This document shows, piece after piece, positions 17,761 to 52,757 of a stretch of DNA of 64,000 bases. The DNA comes from a virus (taxonomy: Duplodnaviria > Heunggongvirae > Uroviricota > Caudoviricetes), in IMG/VR virus record IMGVR_UViG_3300048930_000283; one strand, 5' to 3'. The number at the start of each line of letters is the position of its first letter. Position 1 is the stretch's first letter. The position numbers and the translations under genes are program-made. Under the pieces are notes generated by a model that made no database searches, was not told the DNA's origin, and saw nothing but the letters and a program-made list of their open reading frames with translations.

Positions 17761-17883
17761 TTATTCCCAAGTTCCATATTCTTTAAGTATACTAATTGTC
17801 TCTGAGATGATATCTATCTCGTCTTCCCTTTTATTAGTCACCAAATCGACTGCATCTTTAAAACTTTCCGTAATCATTGGCAT
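17761..17883 (-). CDS. 40-aa hypothetical protein (below ORF-track cutoff)
   Basis: MPMITESFKDAVDLVTNKREDEIDIISETISILKEYGTWE*, strong RBS AGGAGA. Confidence 0.6.
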   Translation of the reverse strand: MPMITESFKDAVDLVTNKREDEIDIISETISILKEYGTWE

Positions 17884-17938: not shown

Positions 17939-17946
17939 TATTTATC
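17939..17946 (-). promoter_or_regulatory. Late promoter-like GATAAATA heading the CTS operon
   Basis: Directly downstream of a terminator, upstream of the 17883 start. Confidence 0.6.
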
Positions 17947-17948
17947 AA

Positions 17949-17980
17949 AAAGAAAACCCGACACATGTCGGGTTTTCTTT
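17949..17980 (-). terminator. Rho-independent terminator
   Basis: 14-bp perfect stem AAAGAAAACCCGAC/GTCGGGTTTTCTTT, 4-nt loop, U-tract; follows the modification operon. Confidence 0.85.
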
Positions 17981-18002
17981 CTAATCAGGAACTTAGATTG
18001 TA

Positions 18003-19001
18003 CTACTTAATGCTTAGGTGTGCAGTTATCAGTTTCTCTGCGTAACCAACAAGCCAGGAGATATTTGGAACCTCCAAATTCTCATAATACTTAAGTTGTA
18101 CCAATGGCGCCGGATCTACGGGACCACCAAAGGTGTTATTCGGAAACAGTTCTCGATAACAGTTTGTCTCACTGCCTCGTAGTACAGGTTTGCATCCGTT
18201 GAGTACCGCCTCAACCACACCATAACCAAAGGTTTCTTGTTTAGCGAATGAAACCACATACTCACACTGCTGCTCGATCTTAAATAGGTCATCACGTGTG
18301 CTTGGCTTTTGAATTAGTAGGTTACTCATTTTCCATTTATCTTCATTGGCAAATGCCATGAATAGAATATTTGGATTAGAATCTACGTAGGCGATGAAGT
18401 CATCTACACCTTTATCTGGATCCATTCTAAGTGGCATAACCGCAGTGTTTTTCACACGCTCTAACTTCTGATATTCAGCATTTCTCACAATTGGCAGCAG
18501 GCTAGTTATTGGTAGATACGAAGTAACATATTTACCTGTGCTGCACTTCTTAGCCATCAGCTTGGTAATAACCTCAGAGCCGCAGAAAATTGCATCGTAG
18601 CATTCAGCCCATGAAGATTCGGCGTAGTGAGCCCAATTCTTATATTCTAGTTCAGAAGCAAAGTCACCAGGTAGTTGACTGGAACCATGATGTATTGTAT
18701 AGAATTTGATATTCTGCAATCCCATTCTGGCAACCCAAAACTTCATCTGTACCACCATTGGGTTCCAAAAATCAACTATAAAAATCTTGTCACCTTCCAT
18801 TAGCGGTAGATGCATGAATTCTTCTAGCATTCTACCCCAGTACCAAAGTACCTCTTTTTCTTTACCTGGAATGTGAACCAACCCACCATCACCATGAATC
18901 AGTGAATGGGAATACGACAACCCTTGAGTTTTAAATTCGTTAAATAGTGGTTTAAGAATTGTATCATCGTGATACGCCAACGAACCAAGTACATAAATCA
19001 T
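18003..19001 (-). CDS. GT-B (GT4-like) glycosyltransferase
   Basis: SFAKQETFGYGVVEAVLNGCKPV signature; DFWNP. Confidence 0.75.
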   Translation of the reverse strand: MIYVLGSLAYHDDTILKPLFNEFKTQGLSYSHSLIHGDGGLVHIPGKEKEVLWYWGRMLEEFMHLPLMEGDKIFIVDFWNPMVVQMKFWVARMGLQNIKFYTIHHGSSQLPGDFASELEYKNWAHYAESSWAECYDAIFCGSEVITKLMAKKCSTGKYVTSYLPITSLLPIVRNAEYQKLERVKNTAVMPLRMDPDKGVDDFIAYVDSNPNILFMAFANEDKWKMSNLLIQKPSTRDDLFKIEQQCEYVVSFAKQETFGYGVVEAVLNGCKPVLRGSETNCYRELFPNNTFGGPVDPAPLVQLKYYENLEVPNISWLVGYAEKLITAHLSIK

Positions 19002-19861
19002 GCCAAATCCCTTATCTGCTGTAGTTTATTCATCTGCTCCTCAATCTCACTAGTGAAGAACATAGGACCAAATCCGTCACCATTCCACCCAAGTAAAGCC
19101 CACTGTATTTGTAGATAGAACAGGTCACCACTGTTAAATGGAATCCAATCTAACTCAACCGAATCGTTTATGATAATTTTGTCTGTATTAACATACTTGT
19201 CGTAACCACAAATACACTGCACACCACCAATGTCCCACTCAGTTATTTGCTGGTATGTCTTAACATTTTTGACTTCACCCAATTCACCATTAATTGACAT
19301 AACTAAACCAAGTAGGTGTGATCCTAAATCATACACCTGCCACTTATTCTCCTTTGTTGCTGCTGGAGGTGGCCAGCCATGAACAAATTGAATCTTTTTG
19401 ATCCTATGAACGCCTAGTAGAGACGGATGATAACACCATTCAATTCCATAATGAACATTGTCTGAAATCTTAGGTATTGGATCTCCGTAGGTCACTAACG
19501 GTTTTTCACATATAACTATAGAATCTCTGTCAATGGTGTTCAGATAATCTGCGTGTGTGTAGTCGGGTGTAGCAATAATGAATAGATCCGCCTTATGTGG
19601 CATCCCATGATCTACAATATGATTCAGTGTGGTTTGAATCTTTGTATTGGAGATGTCTATAGTATCCTTAATTGGTCCCCATGAATTCTCCCAAATGTTG
19701 CTTAAGAATGGTTCAAGAGCAGTATTCATCACATCTACAAGATGAATAGTTCCTTCACCATTGTGATTATCAATTAGATATTTGGCAGCAGATAAAGCAT
19801 GCGCCTTACCAACACCACCACAACCAATGATACAGATACTAGGCGACTTGCGGCTTGTCAT
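18998..19861 (-). CDS. Gfo/Idh/MocA-family NAD(P)-dependent oxidoreductase
   Basis: IIGCGGVG Rossmann motif, IATPDYTH, CEKP. Confidence 0.8.
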   Translation of the reverse strand: MTSRKSPSICIIGCGGVGKAHALSAAKYLIDNHNGEGTIHLVDVMNTALEPFLSNIWENSWGPIKDTIDISNTKIQTTLNHIVDHGMPHKADLFIIATPDYTHADYLNTIDRDSIVICEKPLVTYGDPIPKISDNVHYGIEWCYHPSLLGVHRIKKIQFVHGWPPPAATKENKWQVYDLGSHLLGLVMSINGELGEVKNVKTYQQITEWDIGGVQCICGYDKYVNTDKIIINDSVELDWIPFNSGDLFYLQIQWALLGWNGDGFGPMFFTSEIEEQMNKLQQIRDLA

Positions 19862-21296
19862 ATACTAAAGGATCCACAGCATTATTCATAGAAAAGGCTA
19901 TTTGGCGCATGACACACGGCCCGCACTCGCCGCACGGATTTGCATAATCATGATAGCAAGACCAAGTTTTGTCGTAAGGAACACCAATCTCAAGACCAAG
20001 TTTTACAATCTCCTGTTTCATCATATTTACCAAAGGTGCTTCAACACGAATCTTGGTGTTATTCTGCACTGAATACGGAACCAATGCATTTAACTTCTCA
20101 ATGAAATCTAGTGAATTATCAGGATATGCGGCCTGTTCGGTTAAATTAGCACCCAACTGAACTGTCGTACAGCCTAAGTCTTCGGCAATACCAATTGCAA
20201 TGGACATCATGATTAGGTTACGAGCATTTACATACTCGTGGGCATACTCAATTCCCTTATCGCCAATTGATATGTCGCCAGAATGACCTAGTATAGGCGA
20301 CTTCATACCAGCGAATACTGGGCTAATATCAACGAACTTGTACTGACATTTTAAGTGCTCAGCGATCTGAACAATTCTTTCCTTCTCTCTATCTTCTGCC
20401 TTGCATCCGTAATGATAATGCAGTAAAACTGTGTTGTCTGCACCGTACTTTCTACATGCTAATGTAGCTACAGTAGTAGAATCTAACCCACTAGAGCACA
20501 CGATTAATGCTTTTTCCTTACCTTGTTTCTTGTATAGATTTCCTGGATGCTTAATCTGATTGGTTAAAGAATACACCATCTCTTCAAATGTCTTATCATA
20601 TGAAAGTGTTATCGATGTATAGGCAGGAACATCATAAAATGCAACCTCTTTAGACGAAACTTCAAGTAGTGCATCCTTAACATTTGCCCACCAAATCAAC
20701 TTATTCTCAAAATCAACCATTACATGAAGTGGCAAATAATTCTTGAATAGTACTACTTGCTGGTCATGTTCATCCCATAGTGCGCCTGAATATGAACCAA
20801 TTATCTTTTCTTCTTGTAGCGCCCTATTTATGGAGTATGTATCTTCATTTAAAAATACTGTTGAGTCAATTGGAATATTAGTTAACCTAGTTGATGAATC
20901 CATATGAAAATAGTTGAACTCCTTGTTCAGCTTATCATCATTAGCAATTGTCCCATTATGAACCACCATTCTATGGAAATCAGAATCAATTTTGATTACA
21001 TATGGTTGCAGATAATCAACACTCATTTCTGCCCCACCCTCAGAGATTGATGTTGGAATTGCACGGACATTAAACATCGCTAACTGAGTTGTTGATAATG
21101 ATAGAGGGTACAATGAACCATCGAGTATCGATGATTGATTTAATTCTTTAGACAGTGATAATTCACCACCATCAAACCCAACCACAGAAAACCCAATTGA
21201 GTCACGACCTCTTTGGGTTAATTTCTCCAGGAATTTTTCAATCGGAACGAACCCATTTTTAGGTTCAAATGCCAATACACCCGCAATTCCACACAT
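19839..21296 (-). CDS. queC: Class II glutamine amidotransferase-QueC fusion (Gat-QueC)
   Basis: N-terminal MCGIAG (Ntn Cys), HNGTI; SSGLDSTT PP-loop; TWSCY...CGECGPC zinc site. Confidence 0.9.
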   Translation of the reverse strand: MCGIAGVLAFEPKNGFVPIEKFLEKLTQRGRDSIGFSVVGFDGGELSLSKELNQSSILDGSLYPLSLSTTQLAMFNVRAIPTSISEGGAEMSVDYLQPYVIKIDSDFHRMVVHNGTIANDDKLNKEFNYFHMDSSTRLTNIPIDSTVFLNEDTYSINRALQEEKIIGSYSGALWDEHDQQVVLFKNYLPLHVMVDFENKLIWWANVKDALLEVSSKEVAFYDVPAYTSITLSYDKTFEEMVYSLTNQIKHPGNLYKKQGKEKALIVCSSGLDSTTVATLACRKYGADNTVLLHYHYGCKAEDREKERIVQIAEHLKCQYKFVDISPVFAGMKSPILGHSGDISIGDKGIEYAHEYVNARNLIMMSIAIGIAEDLGCTTVQLGANLTEQAAYPDNSLDFIEKLNALVPYSVQNNTKIRVEAPLVNMMKQEIVKLGLEIGVPYDKTWSCYHDYANPCGECGPCVMRQIAFSMNNAVDPLVYDKPQVA

Positions 21297-21307
21297 CTTT
21301 TTATCCT

Positions 21308-22096
21308 TTACAGTAAGATACTATCACGACCATTGATATCCAAATTGTTGGCTTTATAGTTACCATCAGCCTGTTTAACCAATTGCAATTTTCTTAGCCT
21401 TTCAACTCTGCTATTTTTCTCTTTACGAAATACTAGTAGATTGTTGTTTTTGATCCCCTGCAAGGCACCAACATTTTTATGCCATGCTTGAAGCTTAAAA
21501 CCAAATTCCTCAGCAATACGGATGTAATTCTTAGGTCCTAATACTCTTCCACAAATTATATCAGTACTGTCATCTGAATACAAATTGATAACCAAAATAC
21601 CATCCTTCCTCATAATTCGGTTAACTTCTAAGAATGCTTCATAGTCTGATCTAACCTGGAACCAACCATTAAGAAACATAACCCCGTAGAATTTATCACT
21701 CCAGTCTGGGTTTAGTGACTCGGCGACTGCATGGTAAACGTTGTCAGGAAATAAGTTGATGTGTGCACCATCAGAATGCATTTTTCTCAACTTATCACAA
21801 AGTGAGTCAACCATGAATGTTGACGCATCCACAGCGTGAGATACCTGAGGGAATGGATATGCCCACTGACCAACACCAAGTTCTAACACTAGGGAATCTG
21901 GGTGCTCAAAAACTAAGGACGACAAGTGTTCCATAACCAATGTTTTAAAATCTCCTGGAAGACCACCCTCTTGTGCGCCACCACCCTGCTTGGCCGCTGC
22001 GTCAGAATCATATTCATCACCAGAAATAGCTTCAACTAAAAAATCAATGTGTTCTTTCTTATAAGTGCCCCATGGAAAAGTCATATTTGTCCTCAA
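21308..22096 (-). CDS. Class I SAM-dependent methyltransferase
   Basis: VLELGVG motif I, HAVDAS, 'EVNRIMRKDGILVI' motif. Confidence 0.75.
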   Translation of the reverse strand: MRTNMTFPWGTYKKEHIDFLVEAISGDEYDSDAAAKQGGGAQEGGLPGDFKTLVMEHLSSLVFEHPDSLVLELGVGQWAYPFPQVSHAVDASTFMVDSLCDKLRKMHSDGAHINLFPDNVYHAVAESLNPDWSDKFYGVMFLNGWFQVRSDYEAFLEVNRIMRKDGILVINLYSDDSTDIICGRVLGPKNYIRIAEEFGFKLQAWHKNVGALQGIKNNNLLVFRKEKNSRVERLRKLQLVKQADGNYKANNLDINGRDSILL

Positions 22097-23319
22097 TTAA
22101 AAAAATCATCTAACGAGACGCCGGAAGAAACTTCGACTGCCTCAAACTTGCGCTCAATAATTTCTTCCCCTCTAGGAATATTATCGAACGCTTCCATAAT
22201 TACTTGCAAATTTCTATTTACCTTAGATGGTAGGATATGATCTCCTAGTTCTGGAATATCACATGCCATTTCAACCAAAACCGAAACCTGTTTGATATAC
22301 TTCTTCATATGGTATATGTTATGCAGAGAACTCCAAGCAAACGCTTCTGCTGTATTTCCCTTCTCATTGTTCATCATACCATGAAAATCCGTTACCTCTT
22401 GACACACTGGGCAATCGCATATGAATCCATCTTCGAAGTCACCTTTACTTAACTTAGACCAATCAACCTGGTTAGTAATAACAATATCAGTGAACCCATC
22501 AAATTTTGAGAACATAAAGTATCGACCAAATGCCGCAGTTCTAACTGGATATGAACTATCAAACGTCAAATCGAAGTTGTATTTCAATTTTGGGTTCTTA
22601 CGAATTGCATGCTTAATAGCTGCGAAGTAAATGCACATTGCAGCGCTTGATACACCAAAGATGTGAAATGCCTTTGCCTTTTCTAGGTAACCAGAAGTAA
22701 GCATGAAGAATAAACCCTTGATGATCTGTTTTGGGTTGCCCTCATGAGACGAACCAACTGCCCAGCCATCCAATTCAACCTTAGAAATCTTGTCAGTCCA
22801 CTTCTTAGTTTCAACTAGGTTTCTACCGTGAGCTACGTTCAAGATGATCTCACCGTTACCTGGTTTTCTTGATTTGTAGTACTGAGCAGATTCATAACTC
22901 AATTTAAGACAGTCATCAAAGTCAGTACCAGCAACTGGGGGAATATCAAGAATGGGGAAGATGTTACCATTTTGGATTGAAATATCAAAAGCGTCTTTGT
23001 TGCCCCATTTATCTAATGTAACTGCACCTGTTGCAATCGAATACCCACCAGAGTCAATGAAGAGCATATTATTTGGGTCTTTATCCAACCCCATAACATC
23101 GGCAAGTGTTTTGCCTTTCTTAACAGCAGATCTAAAATGGAACGCACTGAATAGTAGATCCCCATGGTGAAAATAGGAATTCACATTCTTTTTATAGAAT
23201 CGAATATCCTTGGTGGTACCGATGTTTTTATAGTAATCTGGCAACGAACCAGTTTCATTATATTTTTTGAGAACGTGCAGCAGGTTCCCAGACATCGCAA
23301 GTAGGTATCTAGTTCTCAT
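22093..23319 (-). CDS. dpdA: DpdA/TGT-like guanine transglycosylase
   Basis: FIDSGGYS, ILDIPP, HIFGVS, FDSS, CDCPVC...HN zinc site; adjacent to folE and queC. Confidence 0.75.
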   Translation of the reverse strand: MRTRYLLAMSGNLLHVLKKYNETGSLPDYYKNIGTTKDIRFYKKNVNSYFHHGDLLFSAFHFRSAVKKGKTLADVMGLDKDPNNMLFIDSGGYSIATGAVTLDKWGNKDAFDISIQNGNIFPILDIPPVAGTDFDDCLKLSYESAQYYKSRKPGNGEIILNVAHGRNLVETKKWTDKISKVELDGWAVGSSHEGNPKQIIKGLFFMLTSGYLEKAKAFHIFGVSSAAMCIYFAAIKHAIRKNPKLKYNFDLTFDSSYPVRTAAFGRYFMFSKFDGFTDIVITNQVDWSKLSKGDFEDGFICDCPVCQEVTDFHGMMNNEKGNTAEAFAWSSLHNIYHMKKYIKQVSVLVEMACDIPELGDHILPSKVNRNLQVIMEAFDNIPRGEEIIERKFEAVEVSSGVSLDDFFN

Positions 23320-23981
23320 TATGACTGTTTCAGTGCAAGTGAATAAAATTCTTGTCTTACTGTTGGATTATTCATGAATTCACCACTCAAACAAGAAACA
23401 ACCATTGTGGCATCATCGTTTTCCACACCACGCCATTTAACACAGTAATGAGATGCATCAATATAGACAGCTACGTCGTTTGAACCAAGAATGAATTTCA
23501 ATGTCTCCAGGACCTGCATCCCATATCTCTCTTGTTCCTGTGGTCTACGAGCAAAGAAATCAACCACTCGATTGATTTTGGATAACCCAAGAACTTTAGA
23601 ATTGGGTATGTATCCAACTACTGCTGTACCAATGGTAGGCACAAAGTGATGACTACATGCCGAGTTAACCTTAATCCCCTTCTCCACAACCATTCCAGCA
23701 TTCTTAAATGAATTTTCAAAGGTCATGATTTTGGGGAAATGCTCGTAATTAAGTCCCTTAAACACCTCATCTACATACATCTTAGCAATTCTTCGTGGTG
23801 TATCTCTCAAGGAATCATTGGTTGCATCCAATCCTAGGGCAACCATAATTTCCTTAACATTTTGCTCAATGATAACTTTCTTGTCATGATCTGTTAATGC
23901 ATTGGGGATTGTGGGAGTTTCCAAACCCAAAGACATTAAGTGTTCATGTACCTTCCAACCTAATTCTGAATCATAGCTCAT
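23319..23981 (-). CDS. folE: GTP cyclohydrolase I
   Basis: LRDTPRRIAKMY, CSHHFVP, GLSKINR, RPQEQER, HYCVKWRGV. Confidence 0.95.
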   Translation of the reverse strand: MSYDSELGWKVHEHLMSLGLETPTIPNALTDHDKKVIIEQNVKEIMVALGLDATNDSLRDTPRRIAKMYVDEVFKGLNYEHFPKIMTFENSFKNAGMVVEKGIKVNSACSHHFVPTIGTAVVGYIPNSKVLGLSKINRVVDFFARRPQEQERYGMQVLETLKFILGSNDVAVYIDASHYCVKWRGVENDDATMVVSCLSGEFMNNPTVRQEFYSLALKQS

Positions 23982-24167
23982 TTATTCTCCTTCTGGCACT
24001 CTATCACGATACTTCCAAACCAATTCGTCGCTGTGTCCCCAGTCCCGAATTGCCCAAACATAATCCAACCAAATTATTTCATCCTTATCCTCAAGACGAA
24101 CTGGATACCAGGCGAACCATAGGTTCCATCTATTTGGGTCAAATCTAGGACTAACTTTAAATCTCAA
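23982..24167 (-). CDS. Small Trp-rich hypothetical protein
   Basis: WFAWYPVRL motif; tight packing. Confidence 0.55.
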   Translation of the reverse strand: MRFKVSPRFDPNRWNLWFAWYPVRLEDKDEIIWLDYVWAIRDWGHSDELVWKYRDRVPEGE

Positions 24168-24721
24168 AATGGCACCTCATCTAACATACCCATAAGAACC
24201 TTAGCCTGACTTTTTGCATCTGATAATGCATTATGCAGGGCCTCGTTGTTTTTGTCACGTTCTGACTTACTTATACCAGCAATATTACATGCAGTCCTAT
24301 AGCACATTACATTTCTATAACTCCATGGTGATTCCATATCAAGATTCTTGTATGCTATTTCCATGATAGGAATATCGTATGCTGCGCCATTTGACCAAAC
24401 ATATGGAGACTTGGTTGTTGAACCAACCCATTTAGATAGTTCAGTTAACGCAGACTTTAGGTCAATTGGTTTTGGGTCTTGCAATGCCTTGATAACATCC
24501 TTAGATTGTTTCTCCCACCAGGATACAGTACTGGCTTCAATACGCATACCATGTTTCTTACAATCTCTAGCATCTACGTTAGTGTAGAATGAGTTTAGAA
24601 TCAATCCACCATTATTGAACTTGAAATGAACCACCCCGATTGACATTATGGCAGCATCTGGCCTCTGTGCCAACGTCTCGAGATCAATCATTAGGTTATC
24701 TGCTTCTAAGAAATGTGTCAT
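24164..24721 (-). CDS. 3'-5' exonuclease, DEDDh (Rv2179c/DUF5051-like)
   Basis: Start moved to MTHFLEAD (ATGA overlap); MIDLET, WSNGAAYD, HNALSDA. Confidence 0.85.
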   Translation of the reverse strand: MTHFLEADNLMIDLETLAQRPDAAIMSIGVVHFKFNNGGLILNSFYTNVDARDCKKHGMRIEASTVSWWEKQSKDVIKALQDPKPIDLKSALTELSKWVGSTTKSPYVWSNGAAYDIPIMEIAYKNLDMESPWSYRNVMCYRTACNIAGISKSERDKNNEALHNALSDAKSQAKVLMGMLDEVPF

Positions 24722-25026
24722 TTGTCCTCGCAAAGTCTTTTCATAACTTCGAATGCATTTCGGCACTCTTTTAGTCCAGGATGCTGCTCGCACAGGTCAT
24801 CCAACTTCTTTTCCTCTTCCATCTTTCGTTTCACCCATTCTATAGCATCGGCTGTCTCCTGGTTCAAGGCAACACTACTACCTAAATATGATGAAGATGC
24901 CACACCACTACCACCATTGAATGTTTTCATTAATTTTGTCTCGTTGTCCCAGAAGAGAGCTCCAGAATCGGGTGGGACTCCAAAATAGAGAATATCAATA
25001 CCGTATCCAGCTTGTGTATTATACAT
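24718..25026 (-). CDS. Hypothetical protein
   Basis: ORF with overlaps at both ends. Confidence 0.55.
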   Translation of the reverse strand: MYNTQAGYGIDILYFGVPPDSGALFWDNETKLMKTFNGGSGVASSSYLGSSVALNQETADAIEWVKRKMEEEKKLDDLCEQHPGLKECRNAFEVMKRLCEDK

Positions 25027-25384
25027 TTTTTGACCACAAATACCAATCGGGATCCTTCTTGTATTTTACGAACCCACGATCGGTGTAGAATTTTCTGAGT
25101 TGCTTTTTGTTCAATTTATCACCATCACCATAAGGACACACCCTAATAAACAACTTCAATTTTTGACGTACTGCATATTTCTTCACGAGATCAATTATCT
25201 TAGATGCTTTGCCTTTACCCCTGTGTTTGGGTTCGATGTACAGGTTAGTTAACTCTACCATTCTCTGATCGTTAAACGTATTTACGTCTCCGATCTTAGG
25301 TGGATATATCAATTCGACGGTCGCCCCGGGGCAGTTAAACTCCTTATTCCAATGTCTACCAGTTTCTAAAATCAACACACCCAT
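25019..25384 (-). CDS. GNAT acetyltransferase
   Basis: LYIEPKHRGKGKAS acetyl-CoA motif; FYTDRGF. Confidence 0.8.
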   Translation of the reverse strand: MGVLILETGRHWNKEFNCPGATVELIYPPKIGDVNTFNDQRMVELTNLYIEPKHRGKGKASKIIDLVKKYAVRQKLKLFIRVCPYGDGDKLNKKQLRKFYTDRGFVKYKKDPDWYLWSKNV

Positions 25385-36561: not shown

Positions 36562-36798
36562 TCAACTATTCAGAACCATCAATAAAAATTCCTCACTAAA
36601 TCCCTGAGCGGTCGCACCTTCCTCAGTAAGACCATAGGCCGTAACACCAAACCGAAAATCAGCTGGGCCAGCTGGGCCACGAGCCAAATCACTAACAATA
36701 TGTTTAGTGCCGTCTATAGCAGTAAGTATTAAATTCCTAGGAAGATTCTCAAATTCCTCGGGTGTTACTAACCACAATGATTTGACCCATCTCTTCAT
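36562..36798 (-). CDS. Hypothetical protein
   Basis: Start moved to MKRWVK (TAATG overlap with polymerase stop). Confidence 0.5.
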   Translation of the reverse strand: MKRWVKSLWLVTPEEFENLPRNLILTAIDGTKHIVSDLARGPAGPADFRFGVTAYGLTEEGATAQGFSEEFLLMVLNS

Positions 36799-38121
36799 TA
36801 TCCGAAAAAGTCCTCTAACGACGACTGCTCCTCTAACTTCCACTTAGCTGCAACAGCCAAACCCTCTAGAGGTTTTAGAAATGTCTTCTCAAATTGGGTA
36901 TCGTAATCAATATACCCTTTAATAGCATCTGGGAATGATATTCCTGCAGGTACAGCTAAGACATCTTCTTTAATTGGGTTCGGTAATTTCAAATATATGA
37001 ATCGTATCTTATCCGAATTTGCAATTGGTGGTATATCCTTATTGGCATAGTGAGAGTTATATAAAATAGATCCTCGAACATGAATGGGTGTACCTGATTT
37101 GTATCTACCAGAACCCAAACTCCATTTTTCTAGGTCTGTTACCCCACGAGGAAACGCTATGTCCTCAGGTGGCATTTGCATAAACTTCCCTCGAACCTCA
37201 GTTATATGTTTTTGCAGATCCTTCTCGGACTTCTCGAACATCAACTTCAACGAATCCTTTAAGATGGCTCTAATAGTGTGTGGTGTTGATGATCTAACAA
37301 TATCTAACCCCATAATTTTTAGTTTTGGCGGATCGTACTCAACCCCCTCAGAGTTATGAACCAATAATGCATACCTTTTCTTAGATACCCATAGTCCCTT
37401 GGATGCAATCGCCTCCCTCTTAGCATTCATTGTCTTGGTTCGACAATTGCAATAAGAGAACATTTTATCTACGGATTTCTGCACCACCTTCTGCAGCACA
37501 TCTTCACAAAACTTATCCAAAAATGCTGTTGTTTCCTTGATGTTCTTACCTGCACAGTGCTTATCTACTAGCGATTGTAGATTTAGGTATACTGAATCTG
37601 TGTCCAAATAAATTGCATAAGAAACATCTTCAGTTTTTAGAGCCTTGTTTAAGAATATATTTAGTTCTCTTTCGAGAAACTTATCTGATGCCTGACCAGT
37701 TAGAGTAATTGCCTCAGCAATACGAATGTCGTAATACCTAAACCCAGCATTTGAAACCGCACCATACGCAGAGTTGGCCTTTTGTGTTTAGTATAAGTCG
37801 TTAATTTATACCCATATAGCTGCATATTCCTATGCAGAACAGACTATATCATCATCTCATAGAGATGCTCCGTGCTTCAACTCACTTGAGTTTACACCTT
37901 GCGGTTAGTCGTTACACCTTCCCAAATAGGGCTCGGCTCGGTATTGTCCGGTCTGGAGTTTCACCGAATTCTCGGAGTTTTCGTGTAGAAATCACTTTCT
38001 ACCGCCTCTGCATTTAAAGGATTTTTAATGCCATTTGCTTATTATTCAATGAAGAAATTCTAGCTTCTAGTTCTCGTTTTCTCATTAAAAGCTGATCTAA
38101 AGTCATTGAGTGAATTTCCAT
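36798..38121 (-). CDS. gp43: DNA polymerase B, C-terminal subunit (gp43B); exons 38121-38017 and 37778-36798, 361 aa spliced
   Basis: RBS AGGAGG then MEIHSM...NNKQMALKIL|ANSAYG (motif B restored by splicing), YLDTDS (motif C), KKRY. Confidence 0.9.
37779..38016 (-). mobile_element. Group I intron (238 nt, no ORF) in gp43B
   Basis: Exon ends in U (CCUU pairs with GAGG, U.G at the site); GACTA/TAGTC P7; GATATAGTC; CTGCATA-GGAA-TATGCAG hairpin; terminal G; removal restores KILANSAYG. Confidence 0.9.
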
Positions 38122-47555: not shown

Positions 47556-47757
47556 AACTTAACCTATACCAAACTGCGTCATCTAATTTCTCAAAATAAA
47601 CATTTTCTGACAATGAAATGTTTGGCCAATAGAACCTACCATTAGATGGATAATCTAATAGATTCTTATACAAATCAAATGGTGTATCATCAAATAGACA
47701 CCAAACACTAACAGGATACCAACTACCAATAACTCGTTTATGATTATAGTGTTTCAT
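47530..47757 (-). CDS. Hypothetical protein
   Basis: Start moved to MKHYNH (ATGA overlap). Confidence 0.5.
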   Translation of the reverse strand: MKHYNHKRVIGSWYPVSVWCLFDDTPFDLYKNLLDYPSNGRFYWPNISLSENVYFEKLDDAVWYRLSYGNGKNTR

Positions 47758-48221
47758 ACTTCCCAAGGAAAGACAACCCAGCGTTTATCAATAGCTCGAT
47801 TGATACTATTAGTCCAGTAATTCGGAGTAAAGACTCGCTGATCAGTATTATTCCACAATGAAACAACCTGTATGTTTGGTAAATTCAATTCAGAATATTC
47901 TTTTATCGAGGAGAATAGTTCTTTCATGGTTACTCCAGAATCCACAATGTCTTCGACAATCAAAAACTTTCTACCTTCCGTTGAACTAATGACAATATCA
48001 GTCCACTTCAAATAATCTCGTTCAAGAAAATCTCTAGTCGACCAATTTAATGGAATTAGTGGTTTATTGAATTTGTGAGATAGATATGTTGCTGGTACTA
48101 ATCCACCTCGCATAACCCCAACCACAGCATCTGGTATAAAATCCTCTGCGTTGCACCACTTATATAAACTAATAACGTCTTCTTCAAATAAGGTTTGATT
48201 GTATGTTATCAACTCAGCCAT
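47754..48221 (-). CDS. Type I phosphoribosyltransferase (Gpt/XGPRT-like)
   Basis: Start moved to MAELITY; VGVMRGGLVP, LIVEDIVDSGVT, WVVFPWE. Confidence 0.88.
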   Translation of the reverse strand: MAELITYNQTLFEEDVISLYKWCNAEDFIPDAVVGVMRGGLVPATYLSHKFNKPLIPLNWSTRDFLERDYLKWTDIVISSTEGRKFLIVEDIVDSGVTMKELFSSIKEYSELNLPNIQVVSLWNNTDQRVFTPNYWTNSINRAIDKRWVVFPWEV

Positions 48222-48222
48222 A

Positions 48223-49137
48223 TTACGTCCCCACTTTATTAGAAAATAGTACAGATTGCAACCTACCACTAATATGATACCCTTCTTTAATGGCTCTAGT
48301 AGCAATTCGTTCAAGACAATCAGTATCTGTTTGCTGTTCCTTAGTGCTCCCAACTGGCATAACATAAATCGGTGGTAATGGAAAATGCATCTCCCTCAAT
48401 TCGTTAACCTTCTCATTAAGTTCATTCCACGCAGCATCACTATCATTCATCACGAATTTTAAATGACCGCTTACATTTTCAGAAAAATCGAAATATGAAG
48501 CAATAACATCTGGTTTCCATGAGTCGGTTTCCCCGGAAACATTAAACAATTTTGGTGATACATTCCAATTTATGTAAGATGCAGATTTACCTGATCTGGT
48601 ACCGTCATGCATATCATTTACCCACTGAATAAAATCTTTCTTCAAAGGTACTGTTCCATTTGTTTCAATTTGAATCCACCATGGATACAAATCAATATCT
48701 TCAATTGAATAATTTGAAAATGCAAAGTTCCAAAAATCAACAATTTTCATCTGTTGCAACATTGGTTCACCACCAGTAAAGCAGATGTCAATCTTATTTT
48801 CTGTTAATGGATGCTGCCAACTAATAACCAATTGACGCAACGAATCGGCCAATTCCTTATTAGTGTAATCCTTGGCTAAGTGTTTATACAATGGAGACCA
48901 ACTATACCCGGAATCGCAACCGTATTCAAATATTGGCAACTCATTTAAATTTTTGGTATTGAATACACCTTCAATTGAAAATTGGGGTAGAACCCACGTA
49001 GATGGGTTCGTTGGGTCTTTTTGCTTAAAACCTGAACAATTTAGGTTGCAGCCAAATAACCTAACAAACGCTGTTAAAACACCTGTTCTATTTCCTTCAC
49101 CCTGAATACTAAGAAATGGCGGTTCGCCTAGACGCAT
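48223..49137 (-). CDS. queE: 7-carboxy-7-deazaguanine synthase (radical SAM)
   Basis: SIQGEG, VRLFGCNLNC...CD, FTGGEP, IETNG, VSPK, RLQ. Confidence 0.9.
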   Translation of the reverse strand: MRLGEPPFLSIQGEGNRTGVLTAFVRLFGCNLNCSGFKQKDPTNPSTWVLPQFSIEGVFNTKNLNELPIFEYGCDSGYSWSPLYKHLAKDYTNKELADSLRQLVISWQHPLTENKIDICFTGGEPMLQQMKIVDFWNFAFSNYSIEDIDLYPWWIQIETNGTVPLKKDFIQWVNDMHDGTRSGKSASYINWNVSPKLFNVSGETDSWKPDVIASYFDFSENVSGHLKFVMNDSDAAWNELNEKVNELREMHFPLPPIYVMPVGSTKEQQTDTDCLERIATRAIKEGYHISGRLQSVLFSNKVGT

Positions 49138-52094: not shown

Positions 52095-52757
52095 TTACTT
52101 AAACTCAGATGTTGCTTCAACCGCAATATATGTTGTTGAGTTATAAGTGGTATTCTCGAACTTACTAATTTTCTTTGAAGATATTTCTACCTTATGGTCA
52201 CCAGGTAGTAACTTGATTTTCTCAACCTTAAAATTGACCACAAATTCATCTTTTGTGTTTGTATCCATATCAATATCAAAGTTATTGCCAGAAGGGTTTT
52301 TCAAATCCAAAACCCTGGCTACAATCTTATTTCCATCACCAACAAAAGATAGGTCCTCGACCGCCAAAATACCAGCCATCTTCTGAATTCTAGCTAAATC
52401 TGCCGCACTAAGAGTAAATGAAACTTCTGCTTTAGGCATGTTAATTGCCTTTGACGGAGAAACCAAAAGTGTAGGGTCAGCATAAACATATTTCACCGAT
52501 TGCTTCCCCTCGGTTATAGTCATGTATTTATCCTCCAGTTCAATCTCAGGATCACTAAAACTAGACAAAACACCAAGAAGTTCTGACAGATTAAAAATTG
52601 AAACTTGTTTTGCAAATTTCTCAGAAACATCAACCACTGCCATAATATCCTTAGCAATACTCATTGTAGATATTTTACTACCAGCAGGAATAACCAGGTT
52701 GGTGTTAATAGAACTCCATACCTTAAGAACTTCAATTGTTTGTTTAGACAGTTTCAT
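52095..52757 (-). CDS. gp45: Sliding clamp
   Basis: MKLSKQTIEVLK..SSIN; synteny with gp44/62. Confidence 0.92.
   Translation of the reverse strand: MKLSKQTIEVLKVWSSINTNLVIPAGSKISTMSIAKDIMAVVDVSEKFAKQVSIFNLSELLGVLSSFSDPEIELEDKYMTITEGKQSVKYVYADPTLLVSPSKAINMPKAEVSFTLSAADLARIQKMAGILAVEDLSFVGDGNKIVARVLDLKNPSGNNFDIDMDTNTKDEFVVNFKVEKIKLLPGDHKVEISSKKISKFENTTYNSTTYIAVEATSEFK

Follow-up and report, generated by a model that had tools for sequence, protein, structure and literature searches.

We analysed a 64,000-nucleotide stretch of viral DNA (hereafter the window), which is part of the 104-kb IMG/VR record IMGVR_UViG_3300048930_000283, 57% complete by CheckV, and whose source is a marine T4-like phage. 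Our analysis of a six-gene operon in this window indicates that genes for the synthesis and insertion of a 7-deazaguanine base are joined there by a glycosyltransferase whose family, judging from its gene neighbourhoods, travels with phage DpdA systems of both the Gat-QueC and the DpdL pathway. With modest confidence we lean towards the reading that the operon makes a base of the archaeosine (G+) type, inserts it into DNA at the sliding clamp, and adds a sugar that is tailored by an oxidoreductase, the product perhaps being methylated by a methyltransferase.

The operon consists of six open reading frames (ORFs) that run on the minus strand from 23981 to 18003. They are folE, for GTP cyclohydrolase I (23319..23981); a gene for a 408-residue DpdA-like transglycosylase of the tRNA-guanine transglycosylase (TGT) superfamily (22093..23319); a gene for a 262-residue class I S-adenosylmethionine (SAM)-dependent methyltransferase (21308..22096); gat-queC, a fusion of a class II glutamine amidotransferase with QueC (19839..21296); a gene for a 287-residue NAD(P)-dependent oxidoreductase of the Gfo/Idh/MocA type (18998..19861); and the gene for the glycosyltransferase, of 332 residues (18003..19001). 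Neighbouring genes overlap by 1, 4, 23 and 4 nucleotides or sit 11 nucleotides apart. The unit is closed by an intrinsic terminator on the same strand (17944..17985), a hairpin of -26.2 kcal/mol (z -7.9) followed by a T-run, 20-60 nucleotides past the glycosyltransferase stop codon. A simple terminator scan did not pick up this hairpin, and a promoter scan gave 33 sites against 33.1 in shuffled sequence, that is, no excess. The initial annotation had described these six genes as abutting or overlapping and closed by one terminator, and this description holds: the ORF list gives the coordinates and strand, and Pfam, homologs and structure give the identities. A megablast search with the operon against 50,697 phage genomes returned zero matches.

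The evidence that carries our reading is the company kept by the glycosyltransferase gene. Close homologs of its product are few, only 8 among 5.8 billion proteins, and in all four of the homolog contigs that were fetched (P0007, P0009, P0010 and P0013) the genes for FolE, the same DpdA-like protein, Gat-QueC and the Gfo/Idh/MocA oxidoreductase adjoin the glycosyltransferase gene. These four lineages are 35-60% identical to the window glycosyltransferase. One of them, the T4-like relative L005, additionally holds QueD, QueE and an epimerase/dehydratase of the short-chain dehydrogenase/reductase (SDR) type. Pattern scans of viral and metagenome contigs then gave 51 loci of the wider family, or 43 after dereplication at 90%, of which 22 have adequate flank. 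A 7-deazaguanine gene (FolE, QueD, QueE, QueC or DpdA) lies within 8 kb in 19 of these 22 loci and a DpdA-type gene is present in 16 of them, and at least 11 loci have a DpdA1-like gene immediately after that for the glycosyltransferase. This downstream family aligns with the DpdA of phage 9g at a probability of 99.1% (hhalign, E 1.3e-18). Moreover, a paralog of QueD in which the published DpdL motif LxxxHRHxF is present accompanies the family in many metagenomic loci.

When 1.84 billion representatives (clusters at 50% identity) were searched with a profile of the family, 645 members were returned at E<=1e-30. Four further representatives were chosen across the search ranking, blind to context, and all four occur in the same setting: three stand beside a DpdA1-like gene, one of these together with QueD, QueE, FolE and Gat-QueC, and the fourth adjoins FolE, a paralog with the DpdL motif and a phosphoribosyltransferase gene. 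The linkage thus covers two DpdA subfamilies, the Gat-QueC and the DpdL pathways, and hosts of the family as different as T4-like phages, the PA5oct group and Acidovorax phage ACP17.

What kind of enzyme is the glycosyltransferase? Pfam gives no match to the window protein at E<=1; 11 of 15 family members match Glycos_transf_1 (best 1.2e-14). An AlphaFold model, made with eight homologs in the alignment, has a predicted template modelling score (pTM) of 0.83 and the two-Rossmann GT-B fold. Its closest fold matches are retaining GT4/GT20 enzymes, BshA (E 3.7e-10), MshA and OtsA, and PimC-type mannosyltransferases and glycogen synthase are also matched. The EX7E pair E256/E264, R192 and K197 are invariant across 15 family sequences at identities down to 18%. 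On the basis of fold match and motifs, the modelled window protein is best described as a GT4-type retaining GT-B glycosyltransferase.

The DpdA-like protein belongs to the TGT superfamily, with the catalytic aspartates and the zinc site present. It matches Pfam TGT at 1.2e-8 (34.9 bits; the cut-off is 26.3), and its alignment has as invariant positions D89-S-G-G-Y, D254-S-S-Y (FDSSY) and the zinc motif CxCxxC...H (C301, C303, C306, H333). All 50 of the 50 matches listed in a Foldseek search of the PDB are TGTs (E down to 1.4e-6), in a search made with a low-confidence AlphaFold model that we used for superfamily confirmation only. In hhalign comparisons the closest cultured relative is a 540-residue protein of the PA5oct group (probability 97.3%), and the DpdA1-like family is matched at a probability of 82% (E 1e-5), with the catalytic motifs in register with DSGA and DSSSW. 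The window protein aligns weakly, with the motifs in register, with the probable VH7D DpdA2 and with ACP17 gp123, and its matches to tRNA TGTs are weak too. Against 9g DpdA1 the DSGG motif alone aligns, and membership of DpdA1 was rejected for this reason.

The DpdA-like protein ends in SLDDFFN (22096..22116, minus strand), which by tail comparison is a putative motif for binding the gp45 clamp. In T4 the gp43 polymerase tail EKASLDFLFG is a gp45-binding motif (PMC6212786). The record holds a T4-like gene set, namely gp45 clamp, gp44/gp62 clamp loader, RegA, split family B polymerase, UvsX, DnaB-like helicase, RNase H and ligase. Within the window, and on the minus strand, gp45 lies at 52095..52757 (Pfam gp45-slide_C 5.3e-8) and the C-terminal part of gp43, ending SSLEDFFG, at 36798..37787 (Pfam DNA_pol_B 5.3e-10). 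A C-terminus of the form L-x-x-[FLM]-F occurs in 3 of the 413 stop-to-stop ORFs of the 104-kb record: these are the DpdA-like gene, the gp43 part, and an ORF of 63 residues on the opposite strand that is probably no gene. Relatives of the DpdA-like protein keep the tail, as SLDGFFN, SLEGFFG, SLEDFFG, TLDDFFE or SLEDFFS. In ACP17 (L055 560-3124, 6490-7764) the DpdA-like gp123 ends TLDELFE and the polymerase SLDDLFE, and from such comparisons it appears that, in different phage groups, the tail of DpdA follows that of the polymerase.

A predicted complex of gp45 with the last 54 residues of the DpdA-like protein scored 0.42 against 0.05 for the best control, which amounts to weak support. At least 75% of contacts are shared between the runs, and the partner has a predicted local distance difference test score (pLDDT) of at least 42. 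Of 78 solved complexes, 51 reached the mark applied to such scores, as did 2 of 108 mismatched pairs; at scores of 0.60 or below, only 5 of the 78 solved complexes and all 4 passing mismatches reached it. Moreover, a similar clamp-peptide complex has already been solved, and the pass may reflect memory of it. Taking the tails together, the transglycosylase probably acts on DNA at the sliding clamp and not on tRNA, and the putative clamp tail points to a coupling of base exchange with replication.

The genes for base synthesis are only partly collected in the operon. FolE is matched by Pfam GTP_cyclohydroI at 1e-56 and by the NCBIfam FolE equivalog at 3.9e-81, which exceeds the cut-off. Gat-QueC is matched by Pfam QueC (5.4e-50) and GATase_7, its QueC part is also matched in NCBIfam, its N-terminus reads MCGIAG (Cys2), and it aligns with the Gat-QueC of phage 9g at 31% identity over 100% of the length (E 2e-53). 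In phage 9g, DpdA and Gat-QueC are enough for deoxyarchaeosine (dG+) in DNA (Hutinet et al. 2019, PMC6884629). By analogy, we infer that the window Gat-QueC would make G+ from 7-carboxy-7-deazaguanine (CDG) or preQ0. A divergent QueE-like radical SAM enzyme is encoded 24 kb from the operon, beside regA (48223..49137, minus strand). It was found by tblastn with the L005 QueE (32% identity, E 4.5e-37), and its N-terminus matches five QueE NCBIfam models, every one under the cut-off; a PF04055 profile search of the record failed to detect it.

The gene for the QueE-like enzyme overlaps one for a purine-type phosphoribosyltransferase (47754..48365, minus strand; the pair spans 47754-49137), a possible accessory gene with a Pfam Pribosyltran match of 1.7e-14 and weak matches to xanthine and hypoxanthine-guanine phosphoribosyltransferases. 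Similar genes adjoin glycosyltransferase, DpdA-like or QueE genes in L013, L041/L042, L045, L058 and a PA5oct-group phage. The enzyme might salvage the guanine freed by base exchange, or it might turn the deazaguanine base into a nucleotide.

We now turn to the two remaining enzymes of the operon. The oxidoreductase passes the Pfam cut-off for Gfo/Idh/MocA (5.1e-6, 27.6 bits against 24), and it has full-length structural matches in the Atlas with template modelling (TM) scores of 0.72-0.76, some of them fused to nucleotide-sugar domains. Its invariant positions are GxxGxG (G13, G16, G18), E119-K120-P121, D178 and H182. It adjoins the glycosyltransferase in every locus that combines the window-type DpdA with Gat-QueC and is absent from all DpdL-type loci. 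A strict co-occurrence of Gfo with Gat-QueC held in the first 22 loci and was then broken by L059, so that this rule was given up. In L005 (10996-11988) the SDR gene, which is GDP-mannose dehydratase/RmlD-like, lies between the glycosyltransferase and Gfo genes, and it hints at a deoxy- or keto-sugar nucleotide as the sugar donor.

The methyltransferase has 262 residues from a TTG start, or 258 if the ATG at 22084 is used. Pfam gives no match to the window protein; its homologs carry PF08241/PF13649 (Methyltransf_11/25), its Atlas model resembles class I SAM methyltransferases (TM 0.61-0.68), and 14 homologs share an invariant motif I (E72-x-G74-x-G76). The methyltransferase gene keeps company with the glycosyltransferase gene in the window and in L002/L003/L021, L007, L008, L009 and L027. 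The initial annotation had all three of these extra enzymes tailoring the base. That proposal is borne out best for the glycosyltransferase, by its conserved linkage in 19 of 22 loci and in each blind pick; for the oxidoreductase it is reasonable given its constant place beside the glycosyltransferase in loci with Gat-QueC and the window-type DpdA, if not in L059 or the DpdL loci; and for the methyltransferase, which is present in some lineages only, the case is weaker.

How could these enzymes work together? In the pathway that we favour, FolE, the QueE-like enzyme and a QueD, supplied by the host or encoded in the missing 43% of the genome, would make CDG, which Gat-QueC would turn into preQ0 and then into the amidine G+. 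The DpdA-like enzyme, docked on gp45 via its polymerase-like tail, would swap guanine in phage DNA for the G+-type base. The GT4 enzyme would take a sugar from its nucleotide-sugar donor and attach it to the 7-deazaguanine, most likely at the side chain on C7, in the major groove. The oxidoreductase would most likely oxidise or reduce the sugar, either as nucleotide-sugar or after transfer, and the methyltransferase would methylate the sugar or the base. The resulting glycosylated, perhaps methylated, 7-deazaguanine would shield the DNA from restriction and other nucleases. We infer the acceptor atom, the sugar, the order of glycosylation and insertion, and indeed every chemical step past Gat-QueC from the genes alone. 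A bolder prediction, which we regard as tentative and would not quite call probable, is that a glycosylated 7-deazaguanine is carried by the virion DNA of the window phage and of the phages that share the DpdA/GT4 pair (many environmental phages and, among cultured ones, the PA5oct group and ACP17), the base of the window phage being G+-derived, possibly methylated and sugar-oxidised, and installed by a clamp-riding transglycosylase.

It is instructive to compare the window with systems that have been studied. The closest in its core is the dG+ system of phage 9g (FolE, QueD, QueE, Gat-QueC and DpdA1; PMC6884629). The window likewise has FolE, a QueE-like enzyme, a Gat-QueC homolog and a transglycosylase of the TGT superfamily, and the expected core product is the same, a G+-type base in DNA. 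In contrast to 9g, the window transglycosylase is not DpdA1 and has a clamp-binding tail, and QueD is not found in the 104-kb record. The glycosyltransferase, Gfo/Idh/MocA oxidoreductase and methyltransferase are extras of the window, absent from the 12.6-kb deazaguanine region of 9g; tblastn found no relatives of them in the 9g genome either. What is distinctive of the window is that Gat-QueC, Gfo and the methyltransferase are combined with a distinct DpdA subfamily.

Eight 7-deazaguanines have been reported in DNA, with small C7 groups only and none glycosylated, the known tailoring enzymes being DpdL, DpdM and DpdN (PMC10516641). DpdM, the preQ1 methyltransferase of phages phiSM and VH7D, is described there as a distinct fold. 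The window methyltransferase has no relative at E<=1e-3 by tblastn in the 50,697 phage genomes, VH7D included, and is therefore not DpdM. The DpdL/DpdA3-type systems of Cellulophaga phage phiST and of ACP17, which yield deoxy-7-deazaguanine (dDG), resemble our proposal in that the base is diversified by additional enzymes (Cui et al. 2023, PMC10516641). They have DpdL where the window has Gat-QueC. In ACP17 a homolog of the window glycosyltransferase, at 28% identity, is encoded between queE and the DpdA-like gene; the same study makes no mention of a glycosyltransferase. The authors also report that reconstitution of dDG with ACP17 DpdL and DpdA alone failed, and they suggest that further enzymes may be required.

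In the Pseudomonas jumbo phage PA5oct group (Wroclawvirus) a homolog of the window-like DpdA lies directly upstream of a GT4 homolog (25% identity). This pair, which comprises the closest cultured homologs of both window genes, lies near queE and a phosphoribosyltransferase gene. In distinction from the window, the 18.6-kb region of the PA5oct group has no Gat-QueC, Gfo or methyltransferase gene, and its DpdA-like protein is longer (540 residues), with no FF tail at its end. The DNA of PA5oct is resistant to five restriction enzymes, several G-containing sites being protected, and a modified G has been suspected (PMC12191111). In the full-text literature, a search in which most subscription journals are outside coverage, no description of a DNA 7-deazaguanine bearing a sugar turned up.

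Among eukaryotic proteins, QTMAN/GTDC1 is a GT4 enzyme of GT-B fold that alpha-mannosylates queuosine in tRNA, a 7-deazaguanine nucleoside that is by then part of the nucleic acid. Together with the tailoring of preQ0 by the huimycin enzymes HuiC and HuiG, it offers a chemical precedent for the proposed glycosylation. QTMAN ranks 16 and 18 in a Swiss-Prot fold search with the window glycosyltransferase (TM 0.64-0.66) and is not set apart there from other GT4 enzymes. Its acceptor is the cyclopentenediol of queuosine, for which G+ has no counterpart. Membership of the QTMAN family was rejected, the Pfam domain QTMAN_N being found in 0 of 15 family members at E<=1.

Several points weigh against the proposed glycosylation of an inserted G+-type base. 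Gene linkage cannot name the acceptor, and since the family also occurs with DpdL clusters, whose predicted base is 7-deazaguanine without a C7 side chain, a common acceptor site is not evident. Three adequately flanked loci (L007, L025 and L026) and the shorter L029 hold a family member with no 7-deazaguanine gene seen nearby. The median isoelectric point (pI) of the glycosyltransferase, oxidoreductase and methyltransferase families is about 5.3-5.5, against 9.25 for the DpdA1-like family, and such acidic values fit small-molecule enzymes better than DNA-binding ones; with them, glycosylation of the free base before insertion stays possible. The oxidoreductase is absent from L059, which has Gat-QueC and a DpdA1-like gene, and the methyltransferase is missing from most loci. 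QueD was not found in the 57%-complete record, either with PF01242 or by tblastn with four QueD or PTPS-like (6-pyruvoyltetrahydropterin synthase-like) queries. Finally, the AlphaFold model of the DpdA-like protein is poor (pLDDT 56), and its sequence does not allow the protein to be assigned to any of the named DpdA subfamilies.

Could the three tailoring enzymes act on something other than a deazaguanine (glycans of the host envelope, a protein of the phage or some other nucleotide, for instance), with the DNA holding plain dG+ and the linkage reflecting shared synteny or co-regulation? GT4 enzymes, Gfo/Idh/MocA oxidoreductases and class I methyltransferases are generic enzymes of sugars and small molecules, and both their acidity and the four loci with no deazaguanine gene detected are in keeping with this idea. 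However, shared synteny would have to extend across two DpdA subfamilies, two pathway types, unrelated phage groups and all of the blind picks, the overlapping genes form a single terminated unit, and the record, as far as it is complete, has no thymidylate-synthase homolog to supply a hydroxylated pyrimidine acceptor. We consider this explanation unlikely. A glycosylated hydroxy-pyrimidine of the kind discussed in PMC13326640 was rejected on that same lack of a thymidylate-synthase homolog in the 104-kb record and on the linkage of the glycosyltransferase to DpdA. We also rejected a pterin glycoside, with FolE and PTPS feeding a BGluT-like enzyme (rank 40 in the fold search that gave BshA, MshA and OtsA), because the family travels with QueE, QueC or DpdL, and DpdA, and not with pterin reductases.

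A second alternative keeps the deazaguanine and changes the fate of the sugar-bearing product: the operon could make a soluble glycosylated, methylated 7-deazapurine, similar to huimycin or dapiramicin, from free preQ0 or G+, and the base inserted into DNA would be unglycosylated. In the huimycin route the SAM methyltransferase HuiC (PF08241-type) and the glycosyltransferase HuiG tailor free preQ0 (bioRxiv 10.64898/2026.04.15.718813), and acidic tailoring enzymes and a glycosyltransferase without a clamp-binding tail would suit such a route. The huimycin and dapiramicin clusters, however, are secondary-metabolite clusters of actinomycetes whose product is a free metabolite, and their likeness to the window is at the level of domain families only. 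The known 7-deazapurine secondary-metabolite clusters lack DpdA (bioRxiv 10.64898/2026.04.15.718813), whereas the glycosyltransferase discussed here nearly always adjoins it; nor, we presume, is there a known use of such a metabolite for a lytic T4-like phage. We judge a soluble product to be decidedly improbable.

An RNA target, in which the TGT-like enzyme would put G+ into phage or host tRNA for the glycosyltransferase to decorate in the manner of QTMAN, seems to us very improbable indeed, for although the DpdA-like protein is closer to tRNA TGTs than to 9g DpdA1 (by Pfam, PDB sequence search and fold search), retains the CxCxxC...H zinc motif, and has beside it a glycosyltransferase with QTMAN among its top structural matches, it carries a polymerase-like clamp-binding tail, which makes a tRNA target unlikely and whose match to the polymerase recurs in ACP17, it is homologous to a protein of the PA5oct group, where a phage has G-linked restriction resistance, hhalign ties it to the DpdA1-like family, and no QTMAN_N domain was found in the 15 members of the glycosyltransferase family searched.

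Returning to the reading that the sugar is placed on a 7-deazaguanine in DNA, its consequences would be considerable. Glycosylated DNA bases such as glucosyl-hydroxymethylcytosine, base J and arabinosyl-5-hydroxycytosine are pyrimidines. To our knowledge no sugar-bearing purine has been known in any DNA, so that the present one, if the reading is true, would be the first, and a sugar-bearing 7-deazaguanine would constitute a new class of DNA base. This would bear on defences based on restriction, CRISPR and glycosylases, it would affect the sequencing and cloning of environmental phage DNA, and it would offer a source of enzymes for DNA labelling. With 645 representatives in the family, phages of marine and fresh waters could commonly bear the modification. 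Our finding also makes testable both the suspected modified G of PA5oct and the failure to reconstitute dDG from ACP17 DpdL and DpdA alone.

A few observations concern the surroundings of the operon and of the related loci. Of the loci in which we saw no 7-deazaguanine gene, L025, L026 and L029 share two conserved upstream genes (about 630 and about 465 residues) without an assigned function, and these loci may represent a different context for the glycosyltransferase family. Pfam gave no match for ten unassigned neighbours in L007, L008, L009, L059 and 9g.

Upstream of folE in the window, with an ORF of 61 residues between, lies a gene for an Rv2179c-like DEDD 3'-5' exonuclease (24164-24793). 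An exonuclease of this type also stands beside folE or the DpdA-like gene in L002/L003, L004, L006, L021 and L023 (43-62% identity), a placement that may reflect either a link in function or simply the synteny of T4-like phages. The initial annotation had suggested that an upstream GNAT acetyltransferase gene might also be co-transcribed. The gene exists (25019..25384, minus strand; Pfam), but its membership of the system is not upheld: three ORFs lie between it and folE, and a homolog is present only in the closest relative, L002/L003. On the other side of the operon, after the terminator and an AT-rich stretch, a 39-codon ORF (17763-17882) with a Shine-Dalgarno-like AGGAG is part of the next transcription unit.

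Finally, in two relatives a gene for a NADAR-domain protein lies between gat-queC and the Gfo/glycosyltransferase pair (L004 8240-9141 and L006 7985-8446), and the L004 insertion also holds an Acb2/Tad1-like hairpin gene. In these two relatives, counter-defence genes lodge within the modification cluster.

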